In this document: positions 26,747-56,160 of the stretch, piece by piece
Layout: each line of letters begins with the position of its first letter
How positions within the stretch are numbered: the stretch's first letter is position 1
Source: Kiritimatiellia bacterium
GTDB taxonomy: Bacteria > Verrucomicrobiota > Kiritimatiellia > RFP12 > UBA1067
Direction: 5' to 3'
NCBI GenBank assembly: GCA_045656225.1
Contig: JAZOQU010000022.1
Coordinates: forward strand, 4,732 to 68,731
Length of the DNA stretch: 64,000 nt
The notes under the pieces: generated by a model
Seen by the model: the letters and a program-made list of their open reading frames with translations, nothing else
What the model was told of the DNA's origin: nothing
The model's database searches: none
Program-made: the position numbers and the translations under genes

Positions 26747-26867
26747 CTTTATTCCTTAAAAGGAATATAATTATACCAAAATCATTGCAAATATGGGTAT
26801 TATTTTTGGATAAATAGTACTAAAAATTAAGATATCGCAGTGCGATTGCTACTACGCAGATTCAAGA

Positions 26868-39788: not shown

Positions 39789-40508
39789 TCAGTCGAGAGA
39801 GAGGAATTCTTTAGCCCGCTTAACTGCCGCGTCATCGGCCGGTAGAACACCTTCAAGCGGATACCTTAAGCCGAGATTGCGCCATTTTTCAACGCCGAAA
39901 TCGTGATAAGGTAGCACCTCTACACGCTCGACGTTTTTAAGGGAGCTGATAAACTCGCCCATCTTCTTAAGGTCGTCCTCGCCGTCAGTCAAGCCTGGAA
40001 CGATCACGCGCCTAATCCAAGTCGAAACACCCTTTTCCGACAGATAACGGGCGAAATCTAAAATCTGCGAATTGTCCGCGCCGGTAACTTCACGATGAAG
40101 TAAAGGATCAAAAGCCTTGATATCCAATAAAACCGTATCTGTCGCGGCGATCAAACGCTCAATCGCCGCGTCACCGCGCTTAAACGAACCGCCTGATGTA
40201 TCAAGACAAGTCGTGACCCCTTCTGCGTGGGCGAGCTCAAAAAGTTCAGCTACAAATTCCGCCTGCAAAAGCGGCTCTCCCCCCGAAAGCGTTATGCCGC
40301 CCTTTTCGCCCCAATAATCGCGGTAACGCAAGGCGCGCTTCAAAACTTCTTCGGGAGAAAATTCCATCGCAGGCTTTTCGTTCGCCCACGTATCGGGATT
40401 ATGGCAATATACGCATCGGAGCGGACAGCCGTGCAGAAATACGATAAAGCGTACTCCAGGGCCGTCCGCCGCGCCGAACGATTCAAAAGAATGAATCTTA
40501 CCTGTCAC
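39789..40508 (-). CDS. pflA: Pyruvate formate-lyase activating enzyme (radical SAM)
   Basis: [15 protein letters not shown] radical-SAM motif. Confidence 0.9.
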
Positions 40509-42760
40509 AAGCTCTTGTGGCAGGTGCGCCTGATCACGTCGAGCTGCTGCTCGCGCGTAAGATCGATGAACTTAACGGCGTAGCCGCTTACACGAATCGT
40601 AAAGTTAGCGTATTCGGGCTTTTCGGGATGCTCCATCGCGTCGATAAGCTTCTCCGTACCGAAAACGTTGACGTTAAGATGGTGAGCGCCGCGCGAGAAA
40701 TAACCGTCCATGATCGATACGAGCGTCGAAACGCGCGTTTCGGGATCGTTGCCTAGCGCAGAGGGATGAATCGTCTGGGTATTGGAAATACCGTCGAGCG
40801 CGTATTCATACGGAAGCTTAGCGACGGAATTGAGCGAGGCGAGAAGCCCGTTCTGCTCGGCGCCGTACGCAGGATTCGCGCCAGGAGCGAGCGGTTCGCC
40901 CGCTTTGCGACCGTCGGGCATCGAGCCCGTCGCCTTACCGTAAACGACGTTGGAGGTAATCGTAAGAATCGAGGTCGTCGGCATCGCGTTGCGATAAGTA
41001 TGATGGCTCTTAATCTTACGCATAAACTCCGTCAAGAGCCACTCGCCGATCGCATCGGCGCGCTCATCGTCGTTGCCGTAACGCGGGAAGTCGCCCTCAG
41101 TCTCGTAACCGACCGCGAGCCCCGTCTCATCGCGCACGACGCGCACTTTAGCGTACTTGATGGCCGAAAGGGAGTCGACCGCATGCGAGAATCCGGCGAT
41201 ACCGGTCGCGAACGAGCGCTTAACGTCAGTATCGATAAGCGCCATCTGAGACGCCTCGTAATTATAGCGGTCGTGCATAAAGTGGATGATGTTAAGCGTA
41301 TGGACATAGAGCCCAGCGAGCCAATCCATCATTCGCTCGTATGCGTGCAACACTTCGTTGTAATCAAGAACGTCGCCAGTTATAGGGCGAAACTCGGGGC
41401 CGACCTGTACGCGCGTCACTTCATCGACGCCACCGTTGATGGCGTAAAGAAGACACTTCGCGAGATTGGCGCGTGCGCCGAAGAACTGCATCTCCTTACC
41501 GGTCTGGGTAGCCGACACGCAGCAGCAGATGGCGTAGTCGTCGCTCCAGACGCGGCGCATCACCTCGTCGTTCTCGTACTGAACGCTGCTCGAATCGATC
41601 GAAACCTTAGCGGCGTAATCCTTAAACGCTTTCGGGAGACGCGGCGAATAAAGGACTGTGAGATTCGGTTCGGGCGAGGGACCCATCGTTTCGAGCGTAT
41701 GGAGAATGCGGAAGTCGGTCTTCGTTACCATACTGCGCCCATCGCCGCACATACCGGCGAGGTTGATCGTCGCCCAGACGGGATCTCCGCTAAAAAGCTC
41801 ATTGTACGCCGGAATTCGCGCGAACTTAACCATGCGGAACTTCATCACGAGGTGATCGATAAGCTCCTGAGCCTGAACCTCAGTAAGAACGCCGCGCTTA
41901 ATATCGCGCTCGATATAAATATCGAGGAACGTCGAAATGCGCCCGATCGACATCGCAGCACCGTTCTGAGTCTTAATTGCGGCGAGGTAACCGAAGTACG
42001 TCCACTGAACGGCCTCGCGCGCATTCGTCGCGGGACGCGAAATATCGTAGCCGTACGAAAGAGCCATCTCCTTCATCGCCTTAAGAGCGCGAATCTGGGC
42101 GGTAACCTCTTCGCGTCCGCGAATTACGTCTTCGGGCATGGAACCCGCGCCGACCATCGGCAAATCGTGTTCCTTCGCCGCGATAAGACGGTCGATACCA
42201 TAGAGAGCCACACGGCGATAATCGCCTACGATTCGCCCGCGACCGTACGAATCGGGAAGGCCCGTAATAATCTTATTTTTACGGGCTATGCGCATCTCAG
42301 GGGTGTACGCATCAAAAACGCCCTGATTGTGAGTCTTATGATACTCGGTAAAAATGCGGTGCAATTCCGGATTAGGCGTATAGCCGTAAGTGCGAAGAGC
42401 TTCTTCGGCGAGCTTTATACCACCATAAGGCATAAACGCACGCTTAAGAGGTTTATCAGTCTGAAGACCGACAACCTTTTCGAGATCCTTGTCGAGATAG
42501 CCGGGCGCATGCGAGGTAATCGACGAGACGATGTCGGTATCCATATCGAGGACGCCGCCCTTCGCGCGCTCCTCATGCTGAAGCTCCTGAAGCTTACCCC
42601 AAAGAACATTCGTCGCCTCTGTAGCATCGGCGAGAAAATCCGGTCCGCTCTCGTAAGGGGTATAGTTAAGACGTACAAAAACGGCTACGTCGATATCTTT
42701 TTGCCATTGGCCACCGACGAAACCGTCCCATCCAGGCTCATTGATTTCTTCTAAGTTCAT
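40505..42760 (-). CDS. pflB: Formate C-acetyltransferase (pyruvate formate-lyase)
   Basis: Glycyl-radical C-terminus RVSGYAV, typical PFL length. The start was moved to [14 protein letters not shown] (42760); the track's 42856 start adds 32 non-conserved residues across the leader. Confidence 0.9.
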
Positions 42761-43060
42761 ATCCACAACCTTATTTTGAAGAATAAAGCCCAGGCGAACG
42801 ACACACTCGAGTCCCCTCGACAGCGGTCCACGTGGTAAACTCCACTTCAGGCACACGCCCGTAATCGCCAGTCCCGCTTGAGAGATATTATATCATAAAA
42901 TCTATGATAATCCTACGTCCCGCCTCCGAGTTCTGCTCTCGGAGCTCCATCGCCGAGCCCCGTCCTTTTCGTCCTACACCGCACTCCCCGTCCTGACCTT
43001 GGCGCTCCTGCGCCAAGCCTATCCCTAACGCCCGTCCATCCTGCGCCGAGGCGAGAATGC
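42761..43060 (-). promoter_or_regulatory. pflB 5' leader and promoter region: long, structured, purine-rich on the coding strand
   Basis: A 300-bp gap. It has a TATAAT-like element (rc of gatattatatcat) and several 7-bp hairpins (CTCCGAG...CTCGGAG; TTGGCGC...GCGCCAA). Confidence 0.4.
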
Positions 43061-43061
43061 C

Positions 43062-43424
43062 TTATTGGCCGCGTTCTGCCCGATGAACAATCTCGCGCCA
43101 CAAGTTCTGAACCCATTGATCGTACTTACGAACAGGAATATTACTTTCCACTGGCAATATGGAAAAACTCTTTTCTCCATTCATGACAACATCAACCACG
43201 CAACGATTTTTTCGCTGAATAATCGTCAACCGATATGTCTTTTCGTCTGTTTTCTTGGGCAGCCATCTTCGCCTTTGCGCCGCAGAAACTATTGCTCGTT
43301 CCAACGAATATCCTTCCGCAACAAAAACTGGCACATCAACCACAGGCTCACCCACCCCAATCGCAACCGATTTGCATCCGGAAACTGCTGCGAGAAGACC
43401 TAATATTATAATAATCTTTTTCAT
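43062..43424 (-). CDS. Small lipoprotein, unknown function
   Basis: Lipobox MKKIIIILGLLAAVSGC; the gene is lower in GC than its left flank. Confidence 0.5.
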   Translation of the reverse strand: MKKIIIILGLLAAVSGCKSVAIGVGEPVVDVPVFVAEGYSLERAIVSAAQRRRWLPKKTDEKTYRLTIIQRKNRCVVDVVMNGEKSFSILPVESNIPVRKYDQWVQNLWREIVHRAERGQ

Positions 43425-43457
43425 TGTATTAAATTCCTTTCTTTATATCACAAATCG

Positions 43458-43560
43458 CCTTATAGGAAAAATAAACTATGTTATCATACCACAACACGCC
43501 TTATAAGGTCAATTAGAAGCCCATCTTTATAACTGTAGCCACTAAGAATCCAAAATCATA
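43458..43560. repeat. Direct repeat copy 1 (~100 bp) carrying two CCTTATAAGG-type palindromes
   Basis: Aligns with 44499..44600. The core ccttataaggNcaattagaaNcccatcNttataaNtgtagccactaagaatccaaaatcata is near-identical in both copies. Confidence 0.8.
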
Positions 43561-43628
43561 ATGCCCCAATATCATGTCTGCATTGGATGCAGCCCCTTAC
43601 CAGCGCTTTTATATAAATGCGGTGGTCG

Positions 43629-44108
43629 CTACAGCCTCTCAACTGCAGCGAAAACTTTTGCCGCGAGAGAGTCTGATAGCTGCCACATACCGACATTGCC
43701 GCGGCATGGGATGGGTTCGGGTAAGCGCCTTACGTTCGAGAGGTCCCACCAGAACCGATAGCCTTCATCCCATTTCTGCTTTGGCGTTGGCTTGGACTTA
43801 TAGACACCATCCTCCAACACTAGATTTAAGCCATCCCGCGCCTTGTAGTCACAAACTGCAATAATCTTACCAGGCCAATCCTTAACCTCGCGCCAAGAAG
43901 GAAGCTTCTCAAAATCCTCGTCCGAAAGCTCATGCGCAGCCATCGCCATAAACATCCCATATTGCTCCTTGCAAAACGACTTCGAACACGAAATCGCCAC
44001 CCGCCCTTCCCTCGGCTCTGGCATCATACTGCGATTCTCCGTCCGCTTGATTCCGTAAAGAATCATAATCGCATACGATCCAGTACAAGTAAAGGCGTTC
44101 ATAATCAA
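43629..44108 (-). CDS. ASCH-domain protein
   Basis: ASCH signature GxKxxExR present as GIKRTENR. About 70% amino-acid identity to the N-terminal half of the ASCH–RadC fusion at 49492..50319. Confidence 0.6.
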   Translation of the reverse strand: MIMNAFTCTGSYAIMILYGIKRTENRSMMPEPREGRVAISCSKSFCKEQYGMFMAMAAHELSDEDFEKLPSWREVKDWPGKIIAVCDYKARDGLNLVLEDGVYKSKPTPKQKWDEGYRFWWDLSNVRRLPEPIPCRGNVGMWQLSDSLAAKVFAAVERL

Positions 44109-44171
44109 GTATTCACAAAAACTGATTTAACATCTTTTAAAACACGTTCCGCTGTTCCGATTGCAAATCGA

Positions 44172-44492
44172 TCAGCAAGCTGCATAAGATCCCTTCTTAG
44201 TTTTACGCCCCGCCCTCTGCCGTTTCTTTTCAATATCTCTTCTCTTAAACAGTGATTCATCTATCTCAGGCGGTGCAATAGCCATAAGCCAATCCACCTT
44301 ACCGAGAGTACGGCAGTATGCAAGAAGCGAAAGAGTTGAAGAATTTTCCCCTAACTCAAGATTACGAATAGCCTTAAGCGACACGCCGCTCCTATCAGCA
44401 GCAGTTTGCTGTGATATATTAGCGGCAAGTCGCTGCGCCCTCAAGTTTTCACCCAGAACCTTGAGCATTTCTTCTTTTGTTCGATATATCAT
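44172..44492 (-). CDS. XRE-family helix-turn-helix transcriptional regulator
   Basis: Classic HTH_XRE: LRAQRLAANISQQTAADRSGVSLKAIRNLELGE. Immediately upstream of the ASCH gene. Confidence 0.6.
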   Translation of the reverse strand: MIYRTKEEMLKVLGENLRAQRLAANISQQTAADRSGVSLKAIRNLELGENSSTLSLLAYCRTLGKVDWLMAIAPPEIDESLFKRRDIEKKRQRAGRKTKKGSYAAC

Positions 44493-44498
44493 AAATCA

Positions 44499-44600
44499 TC
44501 TTATAAGGAAAATAAACAGCAATATTATAGCATAAGATTCCTTATAAGGCAATTAGAAACCCATCCTTATAATTGTAGCCACTAAGAATCCAAAATCATA
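44499..44600. repeat. Direct repeat copy 2 (~100 bp) carrying two CCTTATAAGG-type palindromes
   Basis: See copy 1. It lies directly upstream of the HTH gene start. Confidence 0.8.
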
Positions 44601-44848
44601 CAACTGCCCTGCGAGAGTTTTAAATTTCAACAAATCAAGCGTCGTTGTCCATAGTTTGCTTTCCTATGGCTTTAGCATAGACGACCTGGATGGATAGACG
44701 CTGAAATACTGTCTTGATTGCACATTAGAATTTTCCGCACAAGATTCTCATTTTCTCAAACGAAAGAAGATAACTCAAGATATTTGCCAGAAACACGAGA
44801 TTTTTGATTGCCTGCGCGGAGCTCGGCCCTAAGAAAGCACAAGATAAA

Positions 44849-44881
44849 AGTTGCAAAGTTGGTCAGACCTACTTTGCAACT
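44849..44881. repeat. 33-bp near-perfect palindrome AGTTGCAAAGT-tGGTCaGACCt-ACTTTGCAACT
   Basis: Inverted repeat read directly, with one mismatch pair. Homologous to the 45-bp palindrome at 45147..45191. Confidence 0.8.
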
Positions 44882-45146
44882 ATTATTACATCTAAGACTC
44901 CCATCACAACTTTGCCAATAGTGCAGCTGTACAATCTTACGATACGCTGTCCTTCGTGGAGAAGGCGAACTTGCGAATTGCGATTTTCGCTTTTTTGTGT
45001 TACACTACTCACCGTCTTAGGGAATTGGCCTTGCGACTTGTCGTATTGAGTCATCAAGCCCTGAGACATTTCTTTTGTTTCGGTTACATCGCAACAAACC
45101 TGACCATTTTCATTGTTTCACATTTAATCCGAGAATACAAATACGC

Positions 45147-45191
45147 ACCAAAAGTTGCAAAGTAGGTCTGACCTACTTTGCAACTTTTGGT
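45147..45191. repeat. 45-bp perfect palindrome (accaaaagttgcaaagtaggtc-t-gacctactttgcaacttttggt)
   Basis: 22-bp arms around a single central T, followed by TTATTT. Candidate bidirectional terminator, protein-binding site or MITE-like end. Confidence 0.8.
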
Positions 45192-45526
45192 TATTTCTTC
45201 GCTCCTCCGCATTTTGCGAAATCCGGCAAGCAAGGGATTGCGATAATCATTTACAAACAGGAAATTATCGGGATTTGCGCGACCGAAAAGCCCTCAGAGA
45301 TTGTGGATTGAGAAAGTTCGCAATCATACAATTACAATATCTTCTCAGCATTCGAAACAGAACTCTACCGCCGCATTTTGAGAAATGCGGCGGTAACTAC
45401 AGACAGCAGAATGCCGCGTAAATATGCCGCTGGACACAGTTTGCAAACTATGGATTAGCAGACGCTATTTAATAAGTCGGTGATGGTGGTGTCGAATGGC
45501 ATTGTAGCATACAATCATCTTTTAGT

Positions 45527-47533
45527 TCAATTGCCAAGCAGTCGCGAAAGCAGCGATCTTGACTTAAAGTCAATATCAAAGAAGTCTTTCGCCGCTGCCA
45601 AATCCATGATGACACTATCACGAGAACGTTTTGCACAAAGATTCTCCGGCAGCTCCTTCATCAATCGGTCAGCGTCCCAGTTTTCGCCAGCAACATATCG
45701 AAGTGTATTCATCCTCTTGTTTACTTCGAACGCATTGGGATTTGCTTGCCACGCCGTTTTAATTGTCTGTATGGCATATTTACCAGTGACCTTCTCACTG
45801 AAATAATCCTCCAAAGACAACTCCCGTATGAATGTAGGACAATTTGACAAATTTTCACTAAATATGGAACGCAAGATTACCGACGAAGCCTTAAGTATAT
45901 CTGGCGACTCTGATTCGGGGTTATCATCCTTGAGCGCCTCCATCAATTCAAGAACAGAATCAAGCATCCTACGAAGATACTCACGATAAAGCGCCGTTCC
46001 GATTTTTTGCTGAACAGATCGGACGATATTGCTTTTCATTACCTCCGTATTTGTAAGTCCAGCCTGAACGCGACAAATTACAGTTCGCCTTATAACTTCC
46101 TGTGCGACAGCCTTCACATCCTCATTTGCACTAATTACTACAGCGGGATAATTGAGAAGATGCTCAAGCGAACCGAAATCATCATTCTTAATCGTCTCAA
46201 TTGCGTGTTGATTAAACCTTGTATTAGTCAAATCGTCAACAATGATGGGCGCCCCTTGCACAGTACGTCGAAGCCCATCAATTGTCGTACGAGTAAACTC
46301 AGGCGCACTTATTTTCACCTTTTGTCCAATCATCATCTTAAGTAAGGTTTCCAGAAATGACGTCTTTCCAGCCTTAGACTGTCCATAGATGAGACCAAAC
46401 ACAGGATACGGAAGGGTTTTCTGATCATAACGCAAAGCTGTATCACGCATTACAGCCATAAAAGGCGAACAGAAGAACCAGTTCGCGAACTCGTAGTACC
46501 TATATTGCATCCCTTCGCAGTCACCATGGAATCTCTCAAAACCATTCATGTAACGAATAAAAAGTTCAACGTCAGATTTAATTTCATCTTGAGTAGGATG
46601 CAAATCAAGCGTAACACCATTAAGCAGCACACAACTCTTTTCAACATCAACGGCGAGCTGCGGATATTCACTCCTCAGTTCCTTCTCATGTTCGCTTTCC
46701 TTCACTTGCTGCCGTTTTACCTTCTGTATGACATCAGGCGTTACAAGAACTTTTCCTTTCCGCTTTTCTTCCTTTGAAATAGATATTGACGGCGCAATGC
46801 GTTTTGCCAAATTGCGAGTATCAAGAATAAAATTAACGTCCTCTTCCACATCCTTGACTGGCTCAATATAAATCGCCTTCTCAACCCTCGCAGTTTCAGC
46901 GATAGGTAATGCGTCTACATTCTCCGTGCTATCCGATATTTCAATAGCCTTTTTCGTTATAGTATCTACACTATCCTGTTTCAAATCCTCATAAGCCTCT
47001 TCAAACCGTTCGTATGCCTCCTGAGAATCAATATAACATATAATCTCTCTCTGTCGCCCGCCAAAAGCATTGAATGACATGTTTGCTGAACCGAATACAA
47101 CCCGAGCCCGTCCATCTTCCGCCTTGAGCAAATACAACTTTTCATGCGATAACCTTCTGCGCGCGACAAAAAGCCGCACATCACCACGCTCAACACGCGC
47201 AATCATCTTCTCCTTTGATGTAGAATCCGTCTTACGAATACGCTCCATTAACTTCGCCTGATAAGCCATTATCTCTTGAAGAGTATACGACATAACCTCT
47301 TCACATCCGAAAATAATTTCAGCGTCTTTGAACAAGTCAAGCAGTTGATATACAAAACCTATCCCCGATGAAAACGTAATTGCTTTGATTGAATTGAAAC
47401 CTGAAAAAAGTTCTTGCCACGTAATACTTTCTGAATAAACATAGTCCATCTTAACTACATCTATCTTGCTCATTCCACCATTTGACATCCCGTCAGATGA
47501 TGAAAATAAATCATCGCCAAAGTCTTTTGCCAT
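45527..47533 (-). CDS. Fused PLD-family nuclease and SF3-like P-loop NTPase (668 aa)
   Basis: N-terminal single HKD-type motif HEKLYLLKAEDGRARVVFGSANMS (HxK...D...GSxN). C-terminal Walker A GQSKAGKTS, Walker B IIVDDL, and a downstream VVISANE that resembles SF3-helicase motif C. Confidence 0.55.
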   Translation of the reverse strand: MAKDFGDDLFSSSDGMSNGGMSKIDVVKMDYVYSESITWQELFSGFNSIKAITFSSGIGFVYQLLDLFKDAEIIFGCEEVMSYTLQEIMAYQAKLMERIRKTDSTSKEKMIARVERGDVRLFVARRRLSHEKLYLLKAEDGRARVVFGSANMSFNAFGGRQREIICYIDSQEAYERFEEAYEDLKQDSVDTITKKAIEISDSTENVDALPIAETARVEKAIYIEPVKDVEEDVNFILDTRNLAKRIAPSISISKEEKRKGKVLVTPDVIQKVKRQQVKESEHEKELRSEYPQLAVDVEKSCVLLNGVTLDLHPTQDEIKSDVELFIRYMNGFERFHGDCEGMQYRYYEFANWFFCSPFMAVMRDTALRYDQKTLPYPVFGLIYGQSKAGKTSFLETLLKMMIGQKVKISAPEFTRTTIDGLRRTVQGAPIIVDDLTNTRFNQHAIETIKNDDFGSLEHLLNYPAVVISANEDVKAVAQEVIRRTVICRVQAGLTNTEVMKSNIVRSVQQKIGTALYREYLRRMLDSVLELMEALKDDNPESESPDILKASSVILRSIFSENLSNCPTFIRELSLEDYFSEKVTGKYAIQTIKTAWQANPNAFEVNKRMNTLRYVAGENWDADRLMKELPENLCAKRSRDSVIMDLAAAKDFFDIDFKSRSLLSRLLGN

Positions 47534-47662: not shown

Positions 47663-49465
47663 TCACAAAGCCTCATAATATTTCCTGATTTTTTCAGCCA
47701 TCATTTTACGACGCTTCGGCAAGAAGCACGTCTCAAAATCCTCAACACCCATCGTTATCACATCCTCTGGAACGCAATTCATTTCCATTGTCTGCTTCAC
47801 CATATCAATATCCGTCATTGATCCTATGACCGGACTCTTCGTTTCGCATTGCTTGAAAACACATCCGAAATACTCAGCGGGCGACTTTTTGCCGATTGCG
47901 ATGTTTATCGGAGTTTCTAAATAGGTGAAATTCGCCACCTGATTATACTGCGTAAACCGAAGCCCATTGTTCTTGAGGAATTCCTTCGGGAAAATATGGT
48001 GTACATCTCCATTATCAATAAGATTAGCAACCGCTGTTACCGAAAACAGGGACTGATCTCTAAAAAATACCTGTGCCGCCTTAAATACATTTAACGCAGG
48101 GCATTTAGCCGCCGACGTTTCCAGCTGTTGCACAATATTTACCGTCCAGAATGATTCCCCTAATTCTGCCGCTTCAATATCTGCAAGACACTTACGCACG
48201 CCTTTCTCTGCGATTGCGCGTAAATCTCGATCCATCTGAGATTCTGGAGACCCAGAATAACGCCCTGTCAATGTACTTAAGACGAACCACCTTCTGACAA
48301 ACGATTTAATTTCTGTAGCACCAACTTCTTTTGTCTCATTCAAGAGAAGATGCAATGTATAAGCGAAATCAAGCGACATTTGTGAGCGTAAGAGCTTAGA
48401 GGAAATAAACCCAGCCGACTCAATAGCCTCCACAAACTGCTTAAAATGATATTCCTTCACGAAGTTGTGAACACCAGACTCTAACTTGGCAAAGCTCTCC
48501 TGCATAATTTCGTCTTTAAAAGTACGATCCTTGAAATCACGTCCTGAAAGCAAACTGACAAGATCCTTCAATCTGCCGCGTCCGAACTTATGCATCATTG
48601 CCACTCGGAGCATATCACTATACTCAGGATCATAAATATCCTTGCGGTCATCCTTGAGCCATTTCATTTCGCCAGCATACGGCGTCGCCATAAACTCTAC
48701 ATCTTTCTCGACACTTGAATAGAACGCAGGATCAACCGCCAAATGACAAAAATAATCAATCGCCTTGCGCAAATCATTGCCTCCATAACGATTATCTGCC
48801 GCAATCTTCGACATTGCAAAATCAGCCTCATTAAGAATCTTACCTTGCGAATTTATGCGTACGAAAATCTCGGTAACCTCATCAATTCCAATATCCTGAC
48901 TAAGCTGAATTACGCCAATCTGACGCTGTTCAATGCGTAGCAACTCTCGAATCTTGGCATTTATCGCCTTGCGCTCCACGCCTAGGTTATCAGCAACATA
49001 CTGTTCTATAAATTCATAATCATCAAAATCCTTCTTAAAGAGAACGGAGATATCTGCAATCCAGCGCTTATCCTTTATATGAACCGGTGTCTGCACCTCA
49101 AAAGAAGGCTCTTCATCCGCCGCCCACGGATTAAATGCTATCTTGATCTGCTTAGATGAATAATCATCCCGCAAAACAGATCGCCCATCAATCGCCGTCA
49201 TAATAGCTGTGACGCGCTGCTGACCATCAATAAGAATCTTCTTCCCAAGCGACAACGATCCGTCCTTAAGCTTAACATCAGGATTTTGCCAGACAATAAT
49301 ATACCCTGCCGGATATCCACGATAAAGCGAATCTATCAAATCGCGGACCTGCGCACCGCTCCAAACAAACGGGCGCTGAATCTCCGGAATAGCAATCTCT
49401 CCATTCCTTACAAACCCAAGAATGTTCTCAATTGTCTTCTGCTCTATCGAATATTTCTCTGCCAT
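47663..49465 (-). CDS. GmrSD-family type IV restriction endonuclease (DUF262 plus DUF1524)
   Basis: N-terminal DUF262/ParB-like motif IPEIQRPFVWSGAQVRDLIDSLYRGYP. C-terminal DUF1524 His-Me finger motif DNGDVHHIFPKEF. 600 aa. Confidence 0.7.
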   Translation of the reverse strand: MAEKYSIEQKTIENILGFVRNGEIAIPEIQRPFVWSGAQVRDLIDSLYRGYPAGYIIVWQNPDVKLKDGSLSLGKKILIDGQQRVTAIMTAIDGRSVLRDDYSSKQIKIAFNPWAADEEPSFEVQTPVHIKDKRWIADISVLFKKDFDDYEFIEQYVADNLGVERKAINAKIRELLRIEQRQIGVIQLSQDIGIDEVTEIFVRINSQGKILNEADFAMSKIAADNRYGGNDLRKAIDYFCHLAVDPAFYSSVEKDVEFMATPYAGEMKWLKDDRKDIYDPEYSDMLRVAMMHKFGRGRLKDLVSLLSGRDFKDRTFKDEIMQESFAKLESGVHNFVKEYHFKQFVEAIESAGFISSKLLRSQMSLDFAYTLHLLLNETKEVGATEIKSFVRRWFVLSTLTGRYSGSPESQMDRDLRAIAEKGVRKCLADIEAAELGESFWTVNIVQQLETSAAKCPALNVFKAAQVFFRDQSLFSVTAVANLIDNGDVHHIFPKEFLKNNGLRFTQYNQVANFTYLETPINIAIGKKSPAEYFGCVFKQCETKSPVIGSMTDIDMVKQTMEMNCVPEDVITMGVEDFETCFLPKRRKMMAEKIRKYYEAL

Positions 49466-49491: not shown

Positions 49492-50319
49492 TTAAAGTTT
49501 GTCCATCACTGACACATACCCTCGCCCTTCATCGCAATCAGGCGAACCAAGGATGAGGTGGTCAAGAAACTTGATACCAAGCAGTTGGGCGGCGGATTGC
49601 AATGCTTTAGTAATCTGCAAATCAGCCCTGCTCGGCGTAGGATTGCCGCTTGGATGATTGTGAGCGACGATGATTGCATCTGCCTGCGCCTTGAACGCCG
49701 CACGAAAGACTTCTCCCAAGTCCACGGTTGTTGTGCCTTGCGTGTGTCCGAGAGATACAAGCACAGGCAAACCAATCGGGCGACACTCCGCGTCAATCGG
49801 CAACACAAAGAAACCTTCCTGCTCACCCGCAATCGGAATTGCCACACGAAACAGCGGATAGGCGTCATCTGCCGTCTCAATGCGCGAGTTCAAAGCACAT
49901 TCAGCCGCAGACACTTTTGCCGCAAGATCGGACGGCATCTGCCACATGCCGACGTTGCCGCGGCAGGGAATCGGTTCGGGTAAACGCACAACGTTCAACA
50001 AATCCCACCAATACGGATAACCCTCGCCCCAAGATTCGGCTTTCTGCCTTTGCCGCGCCTTGTAGTCGCACACGCCAACAATCTTGCCCGGCCAGTTCTT
50101 CACCTCGCGCCACGCGGGCAGTTTCTCGAAATCCTCTGGCGACAGGCTCACCGACGCCCACGCGATGAACTGCCCGTACTCTTCTTTGCAAAACGACTTC
50201 GAACACGAAATCGCCGCCCGCCCCTCGCACGGCTCCGGCCACGCGCTGCGGTTCTCCGTGCGCTTGATTCCGTAAAGAATCAATATCGCGTATGCTCCAG
50301 TGCATGTAAAGGCGTTCAT
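49492..50319 (-). CDS. ASCH domain fused to a RadC-like JAB/MPN domain
   Basis: N-terminal ASCH (GIKRTENR) paralogous to 43629..44108. C-terminal JAMM-type motif VAHNHPSGNPTPSRADLQIT typical of RadC. Confidence 0.7.
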   Translation of the reverse strand: MNAFTCTGAYAILILYGIKRTENRSAWPEPCEGRAAISCSKSFCKEEYGQFIAWASVSLSPEDFEKLPAWREVKNWPGKIVGVCDYKARQRQKAESWGEGYPYWWDLLNVVRLPEPIPCRGNVGMWQMPSDLAAKVSAAECALNSRIETADDAYPLFRVAIPIAGEQEGFFVLPIDAECRPIGLPVLVSLGHTQGTTTVDLGEVFRAAFKAQADAIIVAHNHPSGNPTPSRADLQITKALQSAAQLLGIKFLDHLILGSPDCDEGRGYVSVMDKL

Positions 50320-50780: not shown

Positions 50781-51779
50781 TTATCCCTTGAAAACATATT
50801 GACGATGATATTCCATGTATTTCTCTCTTTCATCATCTAATGGAAGTGCTTGAATATACGAACCCGTCTTGATATTACATTTAGCTTGGTTTGTGGGAGA
50901 TATCCAATTGGAGACTAACATACACTTCTTTTCATCAAAGGAAATAAACCCCTGATCAAACAAACGGTCATAAAGCGGAGATAATATGAATCCGTTTTTA
51001 GGATCAAATGCTTCATCGTCTTCTGATACAGAATATGGTTTTATATGACTCGCAACCAATAGTCTTTCATCAGAAATCTTGGTTATTGGACAATAGGGAC
51101 ACTCTTCCAAAAGTTTATCTCGATATCTCTTTTGGGCAACCGCATCACGATTACTTGTTTTTACAGATGTTTGTATCTCTTTCTCCTGTTTAGCGGCATT
51201 GTTATCACTAACAGAAGCTGTACCTTTCCCATAAGTAAACACTTGTGGAGTTAGCCCTCTTTGTTTTAATGCATCGAAATCCACGAAAAGTTTCCAGTAA
51301 TAACGAATCATCCCTTTGGGATCAGATAATCTCATAATAGAGATATAACTTATCAATGGAAGAGAAAGGGTTCTAAAAAGCTTGTATGCAAGATCATTGG
51401 AATTGATATATCCACGAGGTCCCGCAATTTGTGTTTGGACATGTACTTTAAATTCAATAATATCAGGCATCTTCAACAACGACCGAACACGCTCTTCCCA
51501 CAATTCGGGCATTTTGGATTTGCCTGCATAATTTTGAGTGGGGAACTTGTATTCCTTCTCGGCTGTCTGCATGTATTTCAATAAATCACTTTTCAAGAAA
51601 AAGCAATCTATAGTAGACGCGCCAAGAACGAACGAATGTAAATCAGATTTTGATCCGAAGTAGAATTTAGCCTCTCCGTTCCCTGTACCAAGTTTATTAG
51701 GTCCAAGAACATTGCAATCTGGAACTGTCAGAATGCGTGAGACATCTTGAAATTTATAAGTCTTTCCATCAATTCTCAT
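50781..51779 (-). CDS. HNH_2-type (His-Me finger) endonuclease, putative restriction enzyme partner of the adjacent methyltransferase
   Basis: C-terminal CPYCPITKISDERLLVASHIKPYS...NGFILSPLYDRLFDQGFISF, an ASHIKP...N...H-type HNH_2 core. 4-bp overlap with the methyltransferase stop. Confidence 0.6.
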   Translation of the reverse strand: MRIDGKTYKFQDVSRILTVPDCNVLGPNKLGTGNGEAKFYFGSKSDLHSFVLGASTIDCFFLKSDLLKYMQTAEKEYKFPTQNYAGKSKMPELWEERVRSLLKMPDIIEFKVHVQTQIAGPRGYINSNDLAYKLFRTLSLPLISYISIMRLSDPKGMIRYYWKLFVDFDALKQRGLTPQVFTYGKGTASVSDNNAAKQEKEIQTSVKTSNRDAVAQKRYRDKLLEECPYCPITKISDERLLVASHIKPYSVSEDDEAFDPKNGFILSPLYDRLFDQGFISFDEKKCMLVSNWISPTNQAKCNIKTGSYIQALPLDDEREKYMEYHRQYVFKG

Positions 51780-53848
51780 TTCTCGACCTCCTCCTTAAAC
51801 AATTCGGGAATAACATTTTTGATAGAGTCAAGTATCGCAACAAGCACATCAACGACAATAGCATTTCCTGCTTGCTGATACATTGGAGTGTCCGGAACAA
51901 CAATTTTAAAAGTATCGCTAAATCCCATCAGCCTGAGACATTCTCTCGGCGCTAATTTTCTAATTCTACCTTCCCTAGTTATGTAATTATCAACACCAGC
52001 TCTGTGCATTTTATGCATAGAGGTTAACAAAGGTCTTGCTATCTCCAAGTCAGTTTTGGGTCGAGAATAAAAGGTTTTAGTTCCTGTAGAAAGAACGTAC
52101 TTTCTCACCTTTTCAGAGAGAAAATATTTTTCAAGTTCAGGCATTCCAAAGCTCTTGGCAGTCTCTTCATCAACGAAAACAAAATCTCCGTGCCAATTAA
52201 ATTGCTGATTCTTCTTTTGACATAGCTGAACCTTGCCGTCAACTTGTGTATACCGCTTTGTAAGATTTCCCTCATCAAGAACAAATCGAACACCTTTTTC
52301 TGGAAGATAGTATTTACCTGGAACGACATCAAGTAAATAATCTTGCATCGTCGTTTTTAGTTTCTTCGGTGCTGGAAATTTGAAGCTTCCACCGATTTTT
52401 AAATCCTTACGAAACCCAACAACAAAAACACGTTCCCTATTTTGTGGTATTCCATAATCCTTAGAATTTAACACTTGATAATGCCAGTCATAACCTAAAT
52501 CTGTAAAAATCTTTGAAATAGTAGCCCATGTTTTTCCACCATCATTACTCAACAGTGCACGAACATTTTCATATATGAAACATTTTGGCTTAATTTCTGA
52601 TACTAAACGAGCATACTCATAAAACAATGTGCCACGAGTATCAGATAATCCCATCTGCTTGCCTACAAGACTAAACGATTGGCATGGGCTTCCTCCAACA
52701 AAGAGATCGACTTCATTTTTGTATGGCGCCCCCTCAAGAAATGTAACATTCCAATGAAATCTATCATCTGTAACCGGGTAATTCGCCATATATGATTGGC
52801 GAACCTTATTTCGAGGAAGCATTGGTCGATAAAGCATATCGACTAACTTCTTTCTTTCTTGCCAATCCTTTTCCGATTCCCAACCAACTCTAAATTTGTA
52901 AAATCCAATTGCTTCATGAAGCATTTGAACGCGGTCTTTTAACTCACGCTCAGGTCGCTTACTCATAGCTGGCGCACCGTCTAACAATGCCTGAATATTA
53001 TTGCGCTGATTTACAATCAACTCATAGGCCTGTTGAAGGCTTTCGCTGTTTGGCTTTAACTCGTCAATGCGCTCGCATAATTCCTTAAACGCCGCCACAC
53101 ATTCAGACCATTCTTTAGCACCACAAACAAAAGGAGTTTGGTCGCCATTATCACAAGCAAAAACAATTTCATGAGCGACATGAGTACGCAACAATGCTTG
53201 TTCAATAGCTCCTATCCCGCTAAAAACTGTCGCTAGTCTTAATTTTTCGCCTTTGGCTGATAACGCTTGTGCAACAACAGGCATTAAGCCATCGAAGAAA
53301 TCCAACTGTACTGGATTAAACGTTGTAGCTGAATGCCATTTCTTGAAATATGGTTTTAGTTTGTCAAAGATGTACGGCATTGACTTTCCGCCAGTTTTGG
53401 GGTAGGGCTTAGCGTAAAATGCCGCGTCAATCTTTACATTAGGACAACGCTGTGACGAAACAAAAACGTCTGCCGCGGAATCAGAAAGTGTCGCGGCAAA
53501 AGAAACCTTCTCTCCAAGTTCATATAGCGCGTATGCTGAACCATGCGCTTTATCTGCCGCGGCAACTTTATAACCATTTTCTTTGAGCCACGCGGCATCT
53601 ACAACTTCACGAAACTTTGCTTCGTAAGCTAAAGGAGTAAATCCATCAGCGATTAGAACGATTCGTGATATATTTTCATGAAACGCAACTTTCCCACAAG
53701 GCGGCAATGGAAGATTATAGAACTTCTTCTCCTTAATCCATTCCGCATTTTCCTTGCGAAAAGTCCCAACAAGAACAGCTGTATTAGCTTTATTTTCCCT
53801 TTTCTTTCCCATCTTCAATTCACTTTCTTTATCGCTCATATCATCCAC
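51776..53848 (-). CDS. DNA (cytosine-5)-methyltransferase with a ~200-aa N-terminal extension and a ~100-aa insertion between motifs I and IV
   Basis: Motif I ATVFSGIGA, IV GGSPCQSFS, VI ENVRALL, VIII QNRERVF, IX RKLAPRECLRLMGF, X GNAIVV. The likely true start is MSDKESELK at 53839, with AGGTGG 5 nt upstream. Confidence 0.85.
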   Translation of the reverse strand: MDDMSDKESELKMGKKRENKANTAVLVGTFRKENAEWIKEKKFYNLPLPPCGKVAFHENISRIVLIADGFTPLAYEAKFREVVDAAWLKENGYKVAAADKAHGSAYALYELGEKVSFAATLSDSAADVFVSSQRCPNVKIDAAFYAKPYPKTGGKSMPYIFDKLKPYFKKWHSATTFNPVQLDFFDGLMPVVAQALSAKGEKLRLATVFSGIGAIEQALLRTHVAHEIVFACDNGDQTPFVCGAKEWSECVAAFKELCERIDELKPNSESLQQAYELIVNQRNNIQALLDGAPAMSKRPERELKDRVQMLHEAIGFYKFRVGWESEKDWQERKKLVDMLYRPMLPRNKVRQSYMANYPVTDDRFHWNVTFLEGAPYKNEVDLFVGGSPCQSFSLVGKQMGLSDTRGTLFYEYARLVSEIKPKCFIYENVRALLSNDGGKTWATISKIFTDLGYDWHYQVLNSKDYGIPQNRERVFVVGFRKDLKIGGSFKFPAPKKLKTTMQDYLLDVVPGKYYLPEKGVRFVLDEGNLTKRYTQVDGKVQLCQKKNQQFNWHGDFVFVDEETAKSFGMPELEKYFLSEKVRKYVLSTGTKTFYSRPKTDLEIARPLLTSMHKMHRAGVDNYITREGRIRKLAPRECLRLMGFSDTFKIVVPDTPMYQQAGNAIVVDVLVAILDSIKNVIPELFKEEVEK
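53802..53841. repeat. 40-bp perfect direct repeat (copy 1) covering the methyltransferase start codon
   Basis: tttctttcccatcttcaattcactttctttatcgctcata is identical to 54965..55004 and encodes MSDKESELKMGKK on the minus strand. Confidence 0.85.
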
Positions 53849-53866: not shown

Positions 53867-55003
53867 TCAGTCGCATTTCCCTTTCTCAGAAAGACGATTT
53901 CGTGCAGCCTCTATCGCCAAACGGAACTTCGCCTCCAGCACCTTCTTCGGCGGCAATTCCGTCATATATGACGCGACCCTTATATTGCTACGCCCCAACT
54001 CCAACAATTCAACATGTTCCTCGTTCTTCCCAGCGCACAAAATTAATCCGATTGGCTTGTTTTCACCTTTGCACATCTCATTCTTCTCAAGCCATTTCAA
54101 ATACAACTCCATCTGACCTTTGTACTCAGCTTTAAAAGTATCTATTTTGAGGTCGATAGCCACAAGCCTGCGAAGACGCCTGTGGAAAAACAATAAATCA
54201 AGATAATAATCTTCGTTGTCCACGCTGATACGCTTCTGTTCTGCAAGAAACGCCATATCACCACCAAGCTCAAGTATAGCGTTCCTCATGTCTGCAACAA
54301 GAGCCTTCTCAAGTTCCTTCTCCGAAAAATTGCCGCGCAGCCCAAGAAAATCTAAAACATACGGATCTCGAAAGGCAAGGTCGGCAGACATCTTGCCTTC
54401 TTCACGCAGTGCTTCCAAATCCTTTTTTATAACTGCCTTAGGCTTTTTTGCTATTGCTGTACGTTCATACATCATCGAAGCGATGCGTCCTTGCAATGTA
54501 CGCGTCCCCCAATGTTCCGTTGCGCACATTTCAAGGTAGAACTGCCTCTTAAGAGAATCTGAAATGTAAGAGAGCGTCTTGATGTGCGTCCACGACAATT
54601 GTCTCCGCAATGCGGAGAGAATCTCATCCTCGCCGAAAGTCTCCGCGGCGCGGAGACAATGCCTCAACGTCTTCTCATCCCATCCACCCCCATGAAAAAG
54701 CATAAGACGAGATGCCAACCCCTTGACAACCTTCTTACCATACTCAGCGCGACCGCAACCGAGAATTTCTCTATTAATGCAGTTGCCAACATTCCAATTC
54801 AATTTGGTCAACTCAGTATTAACTCCAACAGCCACGCGCTCCCTTGCCGCTGTTATCAATGATGATATTTCGTTGAAGAGCCTGGTAATCGCATCATCTA
54901 CAAAATTGACACCTGATGATGATTGTCCTAAAACATCATTTTTCTCTTTAACTTCAGAACTCTTTTTCTTTCCCATCTTCAATTCACTTTCTTTATCGCT
55001 CAT
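53867..55003 (-). CDS. YhcG/DUF1016-family PDDEXK nuclease-like protein
   Basis: YhcG-like N-terminal motifs (LSWTHIKTL) and a C-terminal PDDEXK-like core (VAIDLKIDTFKAEYKGQMELYLKWL). Start set to MSDKESELK (55003); the track's 55048 start crosses the upstream HTH gene. Confidence 0.6.
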   Translation of the reverse strand: MSDKESELKMGKKKSSEVKEKNDVLGQSSSGVNFVDDAITRLFNEISSLITAARERVAVGVNTELTKLNWNVGNCINREILGCGRAEYGKKVVKGLASRLMLFHGGGWDEKTLRHCLRAAETFGEDEILSALRRQLSWTHIKTLSYISDSLKRQFYLEMCATEHWGTRTLQGRIASMMYERTAIAKKPKAVIKKDLEALREEGKMSADLAFRDPYVLDFLGLRGNFSEKELEKALVADMRNAILELGGDMAFLAEQKRISVDNEDYYLDLLFFHRRLRRLVAIDLKIDTFKAEYKGQMELYLKWLEKNEMCKGENKPIGLILCAGKNEEHVELLELGRSNIRVASYMTELPPKKVLEAKFRLAIEAARNRLSEKGKCD

Positions 55004-55004
55004 A
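54965..55004. repeat. 40-bp perfect direct repeat (copy 2) covering the YhcG-like start codon
   Basis: See copy 1. Confidence 0.85.
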
Positions 55005-55013
55005 GTCTTCGCC

Positions 55014-55217
55014 TCATTCATGCACAACGTCCATAATATCGCCAACATTGCAATTTAGCACCTTGCATATTCTCGTCATCAGATCAAACGAGATATACTC
55101 ATCTTTAGATAACTTTGCAAAGGTAGACGAAGACGCGCCGACAGCTATTCGCAGATCTGTCCGCGTCATTTCTTTATCTATAAGAAGCTTCCACAATTTC
55201 TTATACGAAACACCCAT
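55014..55217 (-). CDS. Small HTH (XRE-like) DNA-binding protein, candidate R–M controller (C-protein-like)
   Basis: 67 aa from MGVSYKKLWKLLIDKEMTRTDLRIAVGASSSTFAKLSK. AGGAG RBS 7 nt upstream. Extended -10 element TGgTATAAT about 35 bp upstream. Confidence 0.55.
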   Translation of the reverse strand: MGVSYKKLWKLLIDKEMTRTDLRIAVGASSSTFAKLSKDEYISFDLMTRICKVLNCNVGDIMDVVHE

Positions 55218-55457: not shown

Positions 55458-55619
55458 TTACGCTTTCAGCAGCGCAAGAATACCGCATAAAATGATTATC
55501 CCGAGAAACCACACAACACACTCGAGGCACGACTGCGTGCCGTCGCATGAATCATCCGGTCCGGAAGGCATCCTTAAGCCTCTCTCAAACTCCTCTTTAA
55601 ATTTTTCCCATCTAGTCAT
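55458..55619 (-). CDS. Small tail-anchored Cys-rich membrane protein (53 aa), copy 1; below the ORF-track size cutoff
   Basis: MTRWEKFKEEFERGLRMPSGPDDSCDGTQSCLECVVWFLGIIILCGILALLKA, with RBS AAGGTGA 4 nt upstream. Lies inside a ~180-bp repeat (55444..55627). Confidence 0.45.
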   Translation of the reverse strand: MTRWEKFKEEFERGLRMPSGPDDSCDGTQSCLECVVWFLGIIILCGILALLKA

Positions 55620-55758
55620 AATCACCTTTTATCATAAAATATAAACCACACCTACCCCAATCCTGTTAATCCTGTCAAAAAAACTTTATCCACAAATCTG
55701 CACATATCGACACAAATCAATTTGTGGAAATTTGTGACGATTTGTGGACTCCAACTCC

Positions 55759-56160
55759 CTACCCGAACAACTTCTCAACCAGCTCTCTATCCGCAGGACA
55801 AAAATCAATATCGCGCATTTGATCTACCGTTACCCAGCGAATCTCCTGATGTTCCAATGCTTGCGGCACAGCCCCATTTTTCGGATTACATTCGATCAAT
55901 GTAAGACGAATTGTCTTTTCGGGATATTCATGCACAACAGAATCGATAATTCGCTCGTTTTCAATCTCTAGCGCCAGCTCTTCAAGACACTCTCGCTTAA
56001 GCGCCTTTTCAGAAGTTTCGCCAGGCTCGATCTTCCCACCCATAAACTCCCATAATCCACCCTGCGACTTATGCGCCGGCCGCTGCCCGATAAGATACTT
56101 ATCACCATCTTTGATGATGGCTCCAACAACCTCTATCACATTATCATTATACATTTTCAA
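55759..56160 (-). CDS. NUDIX hydrolase (MutT-like)
   Basis: Nudix box GGKIEPGETSEKALKRECLEELAL. Confidence 0.8.
   Translation of the reverse strand: MKMYNDNVIEVVGAIIKDGDKYLIGQRPAHKSQGGLWEFMGGKIEPGETSEKALKRECLEELALEIENERIIDSVVHEYPEKTIRLTLIECNPKNGAVPQALEHQEIRWVTVDQMRDIDFCPADRELVEKLFG

Follow-up and report, generated by a model that had tools for sequence, protein, structure and literature searches.

Direct repeats at the edge of a Kiritimatiellia defence island are likely hipBA promoter-operators of two adjoining modules

A 64-kb stretch of contig JAZOQU010000022.1 from a Kiritimatiellia bacterium, called the window below, carries two direct repeats on either side of a gene for a helix-turn-helix (HTH) protein and a gene of the ASCH superfamily, one of the repeats standing before a lipoprotein gene. 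The repeat is likely the promoter-operator region of a hipBA toxin-antitoxin (TA) operon, present twice as two independent modules of a defence island adjoin at this point, with no scar of a mobile element. The first module (~44600 to 43629) would comprise the native promoter, the antitoxin gene hipB, a 28-codon stub of the toxin gene hipA and the ASCH gene, while the second (~43634 to 43078) would consist of a hairpin, a spacer and a relic of the hipB promoter, ending in GTG ATA TAA, fused to the lipoprotein gene. This fusion of relic and lipoprotein gene would be older and would have arisen once, and it is present at other places in related strains. The related loci used for comparison are referred to by numbers (L001 onwards).

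Extent of the repeats and their promoter elements

The two direct copies were located by repeat search and MAFFT alignment at 43439-43560 (copy 1) and 44480-44600 (copy 2), each ~122 nucleotides (nt) long and offset by 1040-1041 bp. An earlier note on this DNA had described direct repeats of ~100 bp, and these were real and not due to chance, but their true extent reached ~20 nt further towards the genes and into the start of hipB. The first codons of hipB are accordingly included in the repeat, reading ATG ATA TAT in copy 2 and GTG ATA TAA in copy 1, where this relic of the hipB start occupies 43443..43451 on the minus strand and repeat homology stops just past it. The distal 51 nt (43510-43560 and 44550-44600) were 94% identical between the copies and ended abruptly at ...AAAATCATA, and the proximal 70 nt were 74% identical. 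With up to 3 mismatches allowed, the distal 51-mer had two sites in the window, both within the repeat copies, when none were expected by chance.

Each copy is located directly upstream of a minus-strand gene. Copy 2, with its distal conserved block at 44550-44600, precedes hipB on the minus strand as the native promoter-operator, and the same region was found upstream of hipB in L002-L010 and L014-L018. Copy 1, a hipB-type promoter relic on the minus strand, precedes and would drive the lipoprotein gene, and the same fusion was found in L029-L034. The placement of the copies as the regions immediately before the HTH gene and the lipoprotein gene was therefore borne out, as were the promoter matches: the two best sigma-70-like matches in the region 42850-45550 were the two repeat copies, both including a TG extension. 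The copy 2 promoter reads TTGCCT/17/TATAAT (-35 box 44552-44547, -10 box 44529-44524, minus strand) and the copy 1 promoter reads TTGACC/18/TATGAT (-35 box 43512-43507, -10 box 43488-43483, minus strand) with the extended -10 element TGGTATGAT.

The perfect palindrome CCTTATAAGG occurred at two sites in the whole 64 kb, one per copy, and both are treated here as putative operators (O1) without strand assignment. In copy 2 it occupies 44540..44549, 57 nt before the hipB ATG, and overlaps the -35 box, and in copy 1 it occupies 43499..43508, again over the -35 box. A second putative operator (O2) in copy 2 at 44499..44508, TCTTATAAGG or CCTTATAAGA on the gene strand, has one mismatch and overlaps the ribosome-binding site 16 nt upstream of the ATG, and its relic in copy 1 at ~43458..43467, CCTTATAGG or TCCTATAAGG on the gene strand, is the palindrome minus one base. 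Of the two palindromes per copy claimed by the earlier note, one is therefore perfect in each but the second is imperfect in each, by a mismatch or a lost base. The claimed distance of about 40 bp agreed with the measured O1-O2 spacing of 40-41 bp, and both pairs were unique within the 64 kb. Matches to CCTTATAAGG with one mismatch were also present at 10060, 16028, 16715, 26754, 29628 and 62445, giving a window total of 9 relative to 1.2 expected from shuffles. Five of these six extra sites are within long open reading frames (ORFs), the one at 26754 is intergenic and none has a partner 41 bp away; they are probably an effect of composition.

The hipB gene and the loss of hipA

The HTH gene (44172..44492, minus strand) encodes a Cro/XRE-type protein of 106 amino acids, of which codons 1-96 are native hipB while the last ten residues (KTKKGSYAAC) are composed of a junction and out-of-frame hipA 3' sequence; native HipB, as in L010 or L015, has 104 amino acids. 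The protein matched Pfam HTH_3 (E=2.7e-7), and its assignment as HipB is based on orthology and synteny. The window HipB was 97% identical in amino acid sequence to the products of the hipB genes preceding intact hipA in L010 and L014-L017, where the promoter and HTH gene were 91-97% identical in nucleotide sequence to the window and were followed by a protein of 400-402 amino acids with Couple_hipA and HipA_C domains. A HipA gene was located directly downstream of hipB in the orthologous loci L010, L014-L017 and L043-L052. L010, a Kiritimatiellia metagenome-assembled genome (MAG) whose HTH gene was 91% identical to the window over 680 nt and directly followed by a hipA domain gene, was the relevant one of 4 matches in a scan of species-representative genomes for the pattern running from O1 to the -10 box (20 specified bases, 596 Gb, ~1 chance match expected by our own estimate). 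The remaining matches were L013 (Rikenellaceae, with no adjoining HTH gene), one in Streptococcus and one in the Gammaproteobacteria.

The order promoter-hipB-hipA-ASCH was found in L015, L016 and L017 and likewise in L014, although the ASCH gene is internally deleted there. In L017, the hipB promoter upstream of the -10 box is replaced by unrelated sequence (~1000-1095) such that O1 and the -35 box are gone, which represents a recombinant or a chimeric assembly.

Between hipB and the ASCH gene of the window is a remnant of the hipA 3' end (44105..44194, minus strand) consisting of the last ~28 codons and the stop codon. Residues 372-399 of HipA P0121 (400 amino acids) matched 44194-44111, and the last 23 residues of this protein, ending ...ADRFAIGTAERVLKDVKSVFVNT, were identical to the stub. 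Homology between the window and L015 extended over 44556-44206 and resumed over 44178-43966. Since this homology splits and the HipA C-terminus matches the stub, ~1.15 kb of hipA has been deleted between hipB and the ASCH gene. No second hipA was found in the 64 kb searched, and as HipA residues ~372-399 are all that is left, the locus in the window is a degraded hipBA rather than a functional module. The HTH and ASCH genes, which the earlier note treated as a gene pair, are thus not an original pair but the remnant of hipB-hipA-ASCH, as hipA was lost from between them.

The exact 106-amino-acid HTH protein was encoded on eight short metagenome contigs (L001-L008) with differing gene arrangements, and no fewer than 10 sources had the hipA-deleted allele (these contigs, L009 and the window). 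The hipB genes of the eight contigs, which were retrieved by exact protein identity, differed from that of the window by 8-15 nt, and all differences were synonymous. These silent changes with no replacement argue for purifying selection on hipB in the hipA-deleted allele.

Operator footprint across hipB loci

Related hipB loci were gathered from metagenomes and by HipA look-ups, yielding >30 loci with HipB proteins 57-100% identical in amino acid sequence to that of the window. Wherever a locus extended over this region, a palindrome-like 10-bp site of the form CCYTRTRRGG (O1) was located at -57 from the hipB ATG, overlapping the -35 hexamer TTGACC, and a second such site (O2), at -16, was placed after the -10 box and before the ATG, over an AAGG ribosome-binding site. 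The O1-O2 spacing was exactly 41 bp in >30 loci while the flanks were variable. L026 was the sole locus with shifted sites (-60 and -19), and its spacing was still 41 bp. O2 was the perfect CCTTATAAGG in L002, L004, L006, L018, L019-L021, L023 and L026, and one fully symmetric variant, CCCTATAGGG, occurred in L025 in place of the CCTTATAAGG seen elsewhere. Mean column conservation over ten non-redundant promoters was 0.93 for O2, 0.89 for O1, 0.88 for the -35 box and 0.80 for the -10 box, relative to 0.63 between the -10 box and O2 and 0.48 further upstream.

Since the two palindromes hold fixed positions 41 bp apart in >30 related promoters, they are very probably HipB operators through which the HTH protein autoregulates, and the autoregulation proposed in the earlier note is supported by this comparative footprint. 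A HipB dimer would bind the CCTTATAAGG palindromes, with O1 overlapping the -35 hexamer and O2 placed 41 bp, or ~four helical turns, downstream over the ribosome-binding site, and HipB on O1 and O2 would act as a repressor of its own gene, which is the case for hipBA of E. coli.

The lipoprotein gene and its captured promoter

The lipoprotein gene (43062..43424, minus strand) encodes 120 amino acids with the lipobox LLAAVSGC and a Pfam LPAM_1 match. An exact look-up of the protein sequence returned no identical record, while homologues ranged from 98% to 43% identity. The closest homologue, P0241 (98%), was encoded on six contigs (L029-L034), and in all six a promoter of the copy 1 type and the identical junction ...GTGATATAAAGAAAGGAATTTAATACA-ATG preceded the lipoprotein gene, while the gene upstream was mcrC or a gene of 382 amino acids and not hipB-ASCH. 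The block shared with the window starts at the hairpin (window 43634) in L029 and L033 and at the -35 box (window 43515) in L030-L032 and L034. This hairpin (43599..43626, minus strand) follows the ASCH gene as the first element of the hairpin-spacer-promoter-lipoprotein module, and the module was 96-98% identical to that of L029 and L033. Copy 1 was 96-98% identical to the lipoprotein promoters of L029-L034 and 74-94% identical to copy 2. Lipoprotein homologues at greater distance (71%), which came from Kiritimatiellae MAGs, were located 35 nt behind a flavin mononucleotide (FMN) reductase gene and had no hipB-type promoter.

In the lipoprotein promoters, O1 was degraded to CCATTAAAGG in 6 of 6 of the contigs L029-L034, and O2 had the 1-bp deletion in the window and in all six relatives. 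Upstream of the lipoprotein homologue in L001, similarity to the repeat was marginal, with a local alignment score of 13 relative to 9.7 +/- 1.5 for shuffled sequences, 49 of 1000 of which reached it. Downstream of this homologue, at 1487-1705 of L001, is a small ORF with the look of a helix-turn-helix protein (MQNCYTRGKPFQSKLAPYEAEIKELKASGASIRAITAEM...), which might be an insertion-sequence accessory protein.

Why the promoter is present twice

A single copy of the promoter accompanied hipBA in L010, which has no ASCH gene, and in L014-L017, which have the ASCH gene or a remnant of it. Copy 1 is promoter variant B (TTGACCTTATAAGGCGTGTTGTG), the form preceding hipB in L003, L005 and L010, while copy 2 is variant A. 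Because the promoter variants differ, the copies represent paralogous lineages and not a fresh duplication. The fusion occurs without the cassette, hipBA occurs with one promoter copy and the variants differ, so the window contains two separate modules.

It could be argued that the second copy reflects a selected regulon, in which HipB has to control the lipoprotein gene together with its own operon and selection maintains the shared operator. In copy 1 of the window, O1 is still perfect and overlaps a strong -35 box, and the -10 box is likewise retained, so HipB made from copy 2 could repress the lipoprotein gene. In three different arrangements, those of the window, of L001 and of L030/L031/L034, the lipoprotein gene was located <0.5 kb from a hipB module. 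The operators are not conserved at this gene, however, as O1 is degraded in the six close relatives, O2 has lost 1 bp throughout and no hipB was present on the contigs of L029 and L033, which carry the lipoprotein module; the distant homologues also lack a hipB-type promoter altogether. Co-regulation, as suggested in the earlier note, would therefore be possible in the window strain from its perfect O1 but is not conserved in its relatives, and a selected regulon is unlikely as the reason for the second copy.

A quite unlikely alternative is that hipB, hipA and the ASCH gene make up one unit of three genes within the defence island of this lineage, and that the orphan HipB left by the hipA-deleted allele has been recruited for local regulation of the ASCH gene, the lipoprotein gene and perhaps intact hipBA copies elsewhere, with the multi-copy ASCH genes and the shared promoter and hairpin linkers serving as homology handles for the shuffling of cassettes.

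The earlier note had also suggested that the HTH-ASCH cassette was inserted by a duplication carrying the promoter and leaving attL/attR-like repeats. More broadly, the cassette with its promoter could have been inserted or tandemly duplicated before the lipoprotein gene, the repeats then being attL/attR-like or marking the duplication junctions. The repeats are indeed in direct orientation on both sides of a small cassette in a low-GC island, as attL/attR repeats would be, and tandem hipB-stub-ASCH units are suggested by L004, the ends of which (1-180 and 1051-1230) overlap each other at 96% identity (173/180) with a period of 1050 bp. In L003 and L007, the ASCH 3' end and hairpin are directly upstream of the promoter and an intact hipB. 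Tandem units in some strains would not, however, explain copy 1. A comparison of relatives, as proposed in the note, revealed hipBA or the cassette with a single promoter copy (L010, L014-L017) and the fusion of copy 1 to the lipoprotein gene, with identical junction and differing upstream genes, on six contigs without the cassette (L029-L034). Relatives with the cassette but one copy were the outcome that the note itself had named as refuting its proposal. Copy 1 is closer to the promoters on these contigs than to copy 2 and belongs to a different variant, and both repeats are equidistant from the start of their own downstream gene in the manner of promoters. Unlike attL/attR repeats, each copy is coupled in relatives to the gene downstream of it and is not accompanied by a recombinase: no integrase, recombinase or transposase gene was found near the repeats, whose neighbours are PFL, lipoprotein, ASCH, hipB, PLD/NgoFVII-like and GmrSD genes, and a tRNA scan of the window returned no tRNA gene. 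An insertion or local duplication of the cassette is consequently very improbable. The overlap of the L004 ends itself reflects either a tandem pair of non-identical units or a mixed-strain assembly.

Readings of the repeat as a structured RNA, or as a non-autonomous mobile element of small size such as a miniature inverted-repeat transposable element or a repetitive extragenic palindrome, in place of a promoter are hardly credible. The repeat is a sharply bounded non-coding sequence of ~120 nt in more than one copy, and the related contigs are short as assemblies breaking at repeats would give, but it had no Rfam match and no terminal inverted repeats, was found in one orientation only at a fixed distance from the start codon, and its conserved blocks, the sole survivors in distant relatives, correspond to the two palindromes and the -35 and -10 boxes.

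Several observations weigh against the interpretation of the repeats as hipBA promoter-operators of two adjoining modules. The NCBIfam model TIGR03070 (couple_hipB) matched the window HTH protein at E=4.4e-8, which is under its curated cut-off, and most of the related loci are short metagenome contigs, some of which are possibly chimeras. The part of the repeat best conserved between the window copies is the distal 50 nt, which elsewhere is found in close relatives only. O2 is imperfect in both window copies and is degenerate (CCTTTTGGGG) in L003, L005, L007, L009 and L010, the last of which contains an intact hipBA. O2 may therefore matter less than O1, or the O2-degenerate alleles may be less tightly repressed, and since O2 is degenerate in some close relatives, O1 is probably the main site. 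The recognition geometry of E. coli HipB is also not simply transferable, because its site is an 18-bp split site rather than a contiguous 10 bp.

The ASCH gene

The ASCH-superfamily gene (43629..44102, minus strand) is part of an ORF of 159 amino acids extending to 44108, and with the probable ATG at 44102 it would encode 157 amino acids. No direct family match for the 159-amino-acid protein was found in Pfam, NCBIfam, PADLOC or a single-sequence search of the PDB. It was 68% identical in amino acid sequence to the N-terminal domain of the ASCH-RadC/JAB protein encoded at 49492-50319 of the window, and its homologues numbered in the hundreds, either free-standing or fused to RadC and mostly on short contigs. 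A profile of the family retrieved distant full-length relatives (E about 1e-9), and eight of ten that were tested matched PF04266, six of the eight at or above the gathering score. A profile search of the PDB placed ASC-1 ASCH domains at the top with E about 0.3, aligned on GIKRxExRS. An N-terminal GxKxxExR motif is reportedly part of the original description of the ASCH superfamily. In the window protein, YGIKRTENR at residues 18-26 was invariant or nearly so in the family alignment and aligned to GIKRVEGRS of human ASC-1. An AlphaFold2 model built from a 31-sequence alignment had a mean pLDDT (predicted local distance difference test) of 49, which was too poor for a fold search. The ASCH label given by the earlier note is thus a reasonable one from these transitive matches to PF04266 and the PDB profile, although no direct match in Pfam, NCBIfam or PADLOC accompanies it.

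The ASCH gene was considered and rejected as a cognate partner of the HTH gene, since hipBA loci at 83-86% HipA identity lack it, as do the informative metagenome loci. It directly follows hipA in L015, L016 and L017 and also follows other genes, as with vsr in L009. L009 contains two full ASCH copies and a remnant. The multi-copy ASCH genes may act as recombination substrates in the island.

Genomic setting

The GC content of the window drops from ~54% to ~43% at about 43000 and stays low until about 55500-55700. At the first of these boundaries is pfl, encoding pyruvate formate-lyase (40505-42856, minus strand), and directly upstream of it is a ZMP/ZTP riboswitch of the pfl motif (42781-42885, minus strand) that scored 46 bits relative to a gathering score of 39. 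A ZTP riboswitch upstream of pfl is a known arrangement, and an Rfam scan of the window returned no other match. Beyond the repeats, the low-GC stretch features genes for a PLD/NgoFVII-like protein with a P-loop region (45527-47533), GmrSD (47663-49465), the ASCH-RadC/JAB protein (49492-50319, minus strand, itself 54% GC), HNH (50781-51779), Dcm (51776-53848) and YhcG (53867-55048), followed by a NUDIX gene (55759-56160) on the far flank of the island. L014 has the NUDIX flank in common with the window, but the defence genes that it carries are different (PLD-helicase, GIY-YIG, McrBC and hipBA), which places the repeats in a defence island of variable content, at its edge towards pfl. L029 likewise combines this flank with different defence genes. 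The names attached to related sequences in their sources pointed to Kiritimatiellia.

Hairpins were a recurrent feature of this region. A near-perfect 39-nt hairpin (AAAAGTTGCAAAGTNGGTCNGACCTACTTTGCAAC...) was present twice, at 44846-44884 and 45150-45188, 304 bp apart, and these were the only two in the window. The ~925 bp surrounding them (44601-45526) contained no convincing gene, and the 265 bp between them had no match in L001-L016 or L029-L042 by BLAST against the window. Hairpins similar to the 39-nt pair were located at module borders in L003, L005 and L010. A second hairpin family, CGCATTT...AAANGCG, followed various island genes at 43599-43626 and 45366-45395 of the window and in L002, L007, L009, L014, L015, L029 and L033, and these recurred at homology breakpoints between contigs as if they were shared cassette linkers.

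Comparison with known systems

HipB has been described as an autoregulatory Cro-like HTH protein that forms dimers and recognizes palindromic operators (PMC8262856). The E. coli protein binds cooperatively to four operators of the form TATCCN8GGATA, and its disordered C-terminal tail, a Lon degron, is dispensable for binding of DNA and HipA (PMC3376134). The orthologous loci described here resemble hipBA of E. coli K-12 in having a Cro/XRE-type HTH gene first that overlaps a hipA kinase gene, and in having several palindromic operators over the core promoter from which autoregulation would be expected. They differ in having two conserved operators rather than four, although close relatives alone may have a third half-site, in the contiguous 10-bp core CCYTATARGG, and in the fixed O1-O2 distance of 41 bp that places O2 over the ribosome-binding site. 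The window locus differs further in that hipA is deleted and HipB is an orphan with an altered tail.

The window locus is also similar to orphan antitoxins and degraded TA loci, as the toxin gene is internally deleted while the antitoxin and its promoter are retained, with the antitoxin apparently under purifying selection. The role of such a HipB could be anti-addiction, cross-regulation of an intact hipBA or control of neighbouring genes, and the hipA stub may be kept only for the translation signals of the next gene. A reading as a controller (C) protein of a restriction-modification system with its C-boxes was also considered, as these are likewise small XRE HTH genes in defence islands with palindromes over their own promoter and the window HTH protein had a weak match to the PADLOC 'Control_protein' model (E=3.4e-4). 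This reading was rejected because the orthologues pair with a HipA kinase and not with a restriction endonuclease, and no nuclease gene is present in the operon.

Significance

The explanation for the repeats is an ordinary one and leaves the knowledge of TA regulation unchanged. It corrects the annotation of the island, in which the HTH and ASCH genes represent a hipBA remnant rather than a new two-gene system, and it documents a widespread hipA-deleted allele whose orphan antitoxin would still be selected. It also provides an instance of a TA promoter captured by an unrelated lipoprotein gene, and for an unstudied clade of Kiritimatiellia HipB proteins it provides a putative operator motif, well supported by the comparison of loci, of two CCYTATARGG sites 41 bp apart, positioned over the -35 box and the ribosome-binding site.

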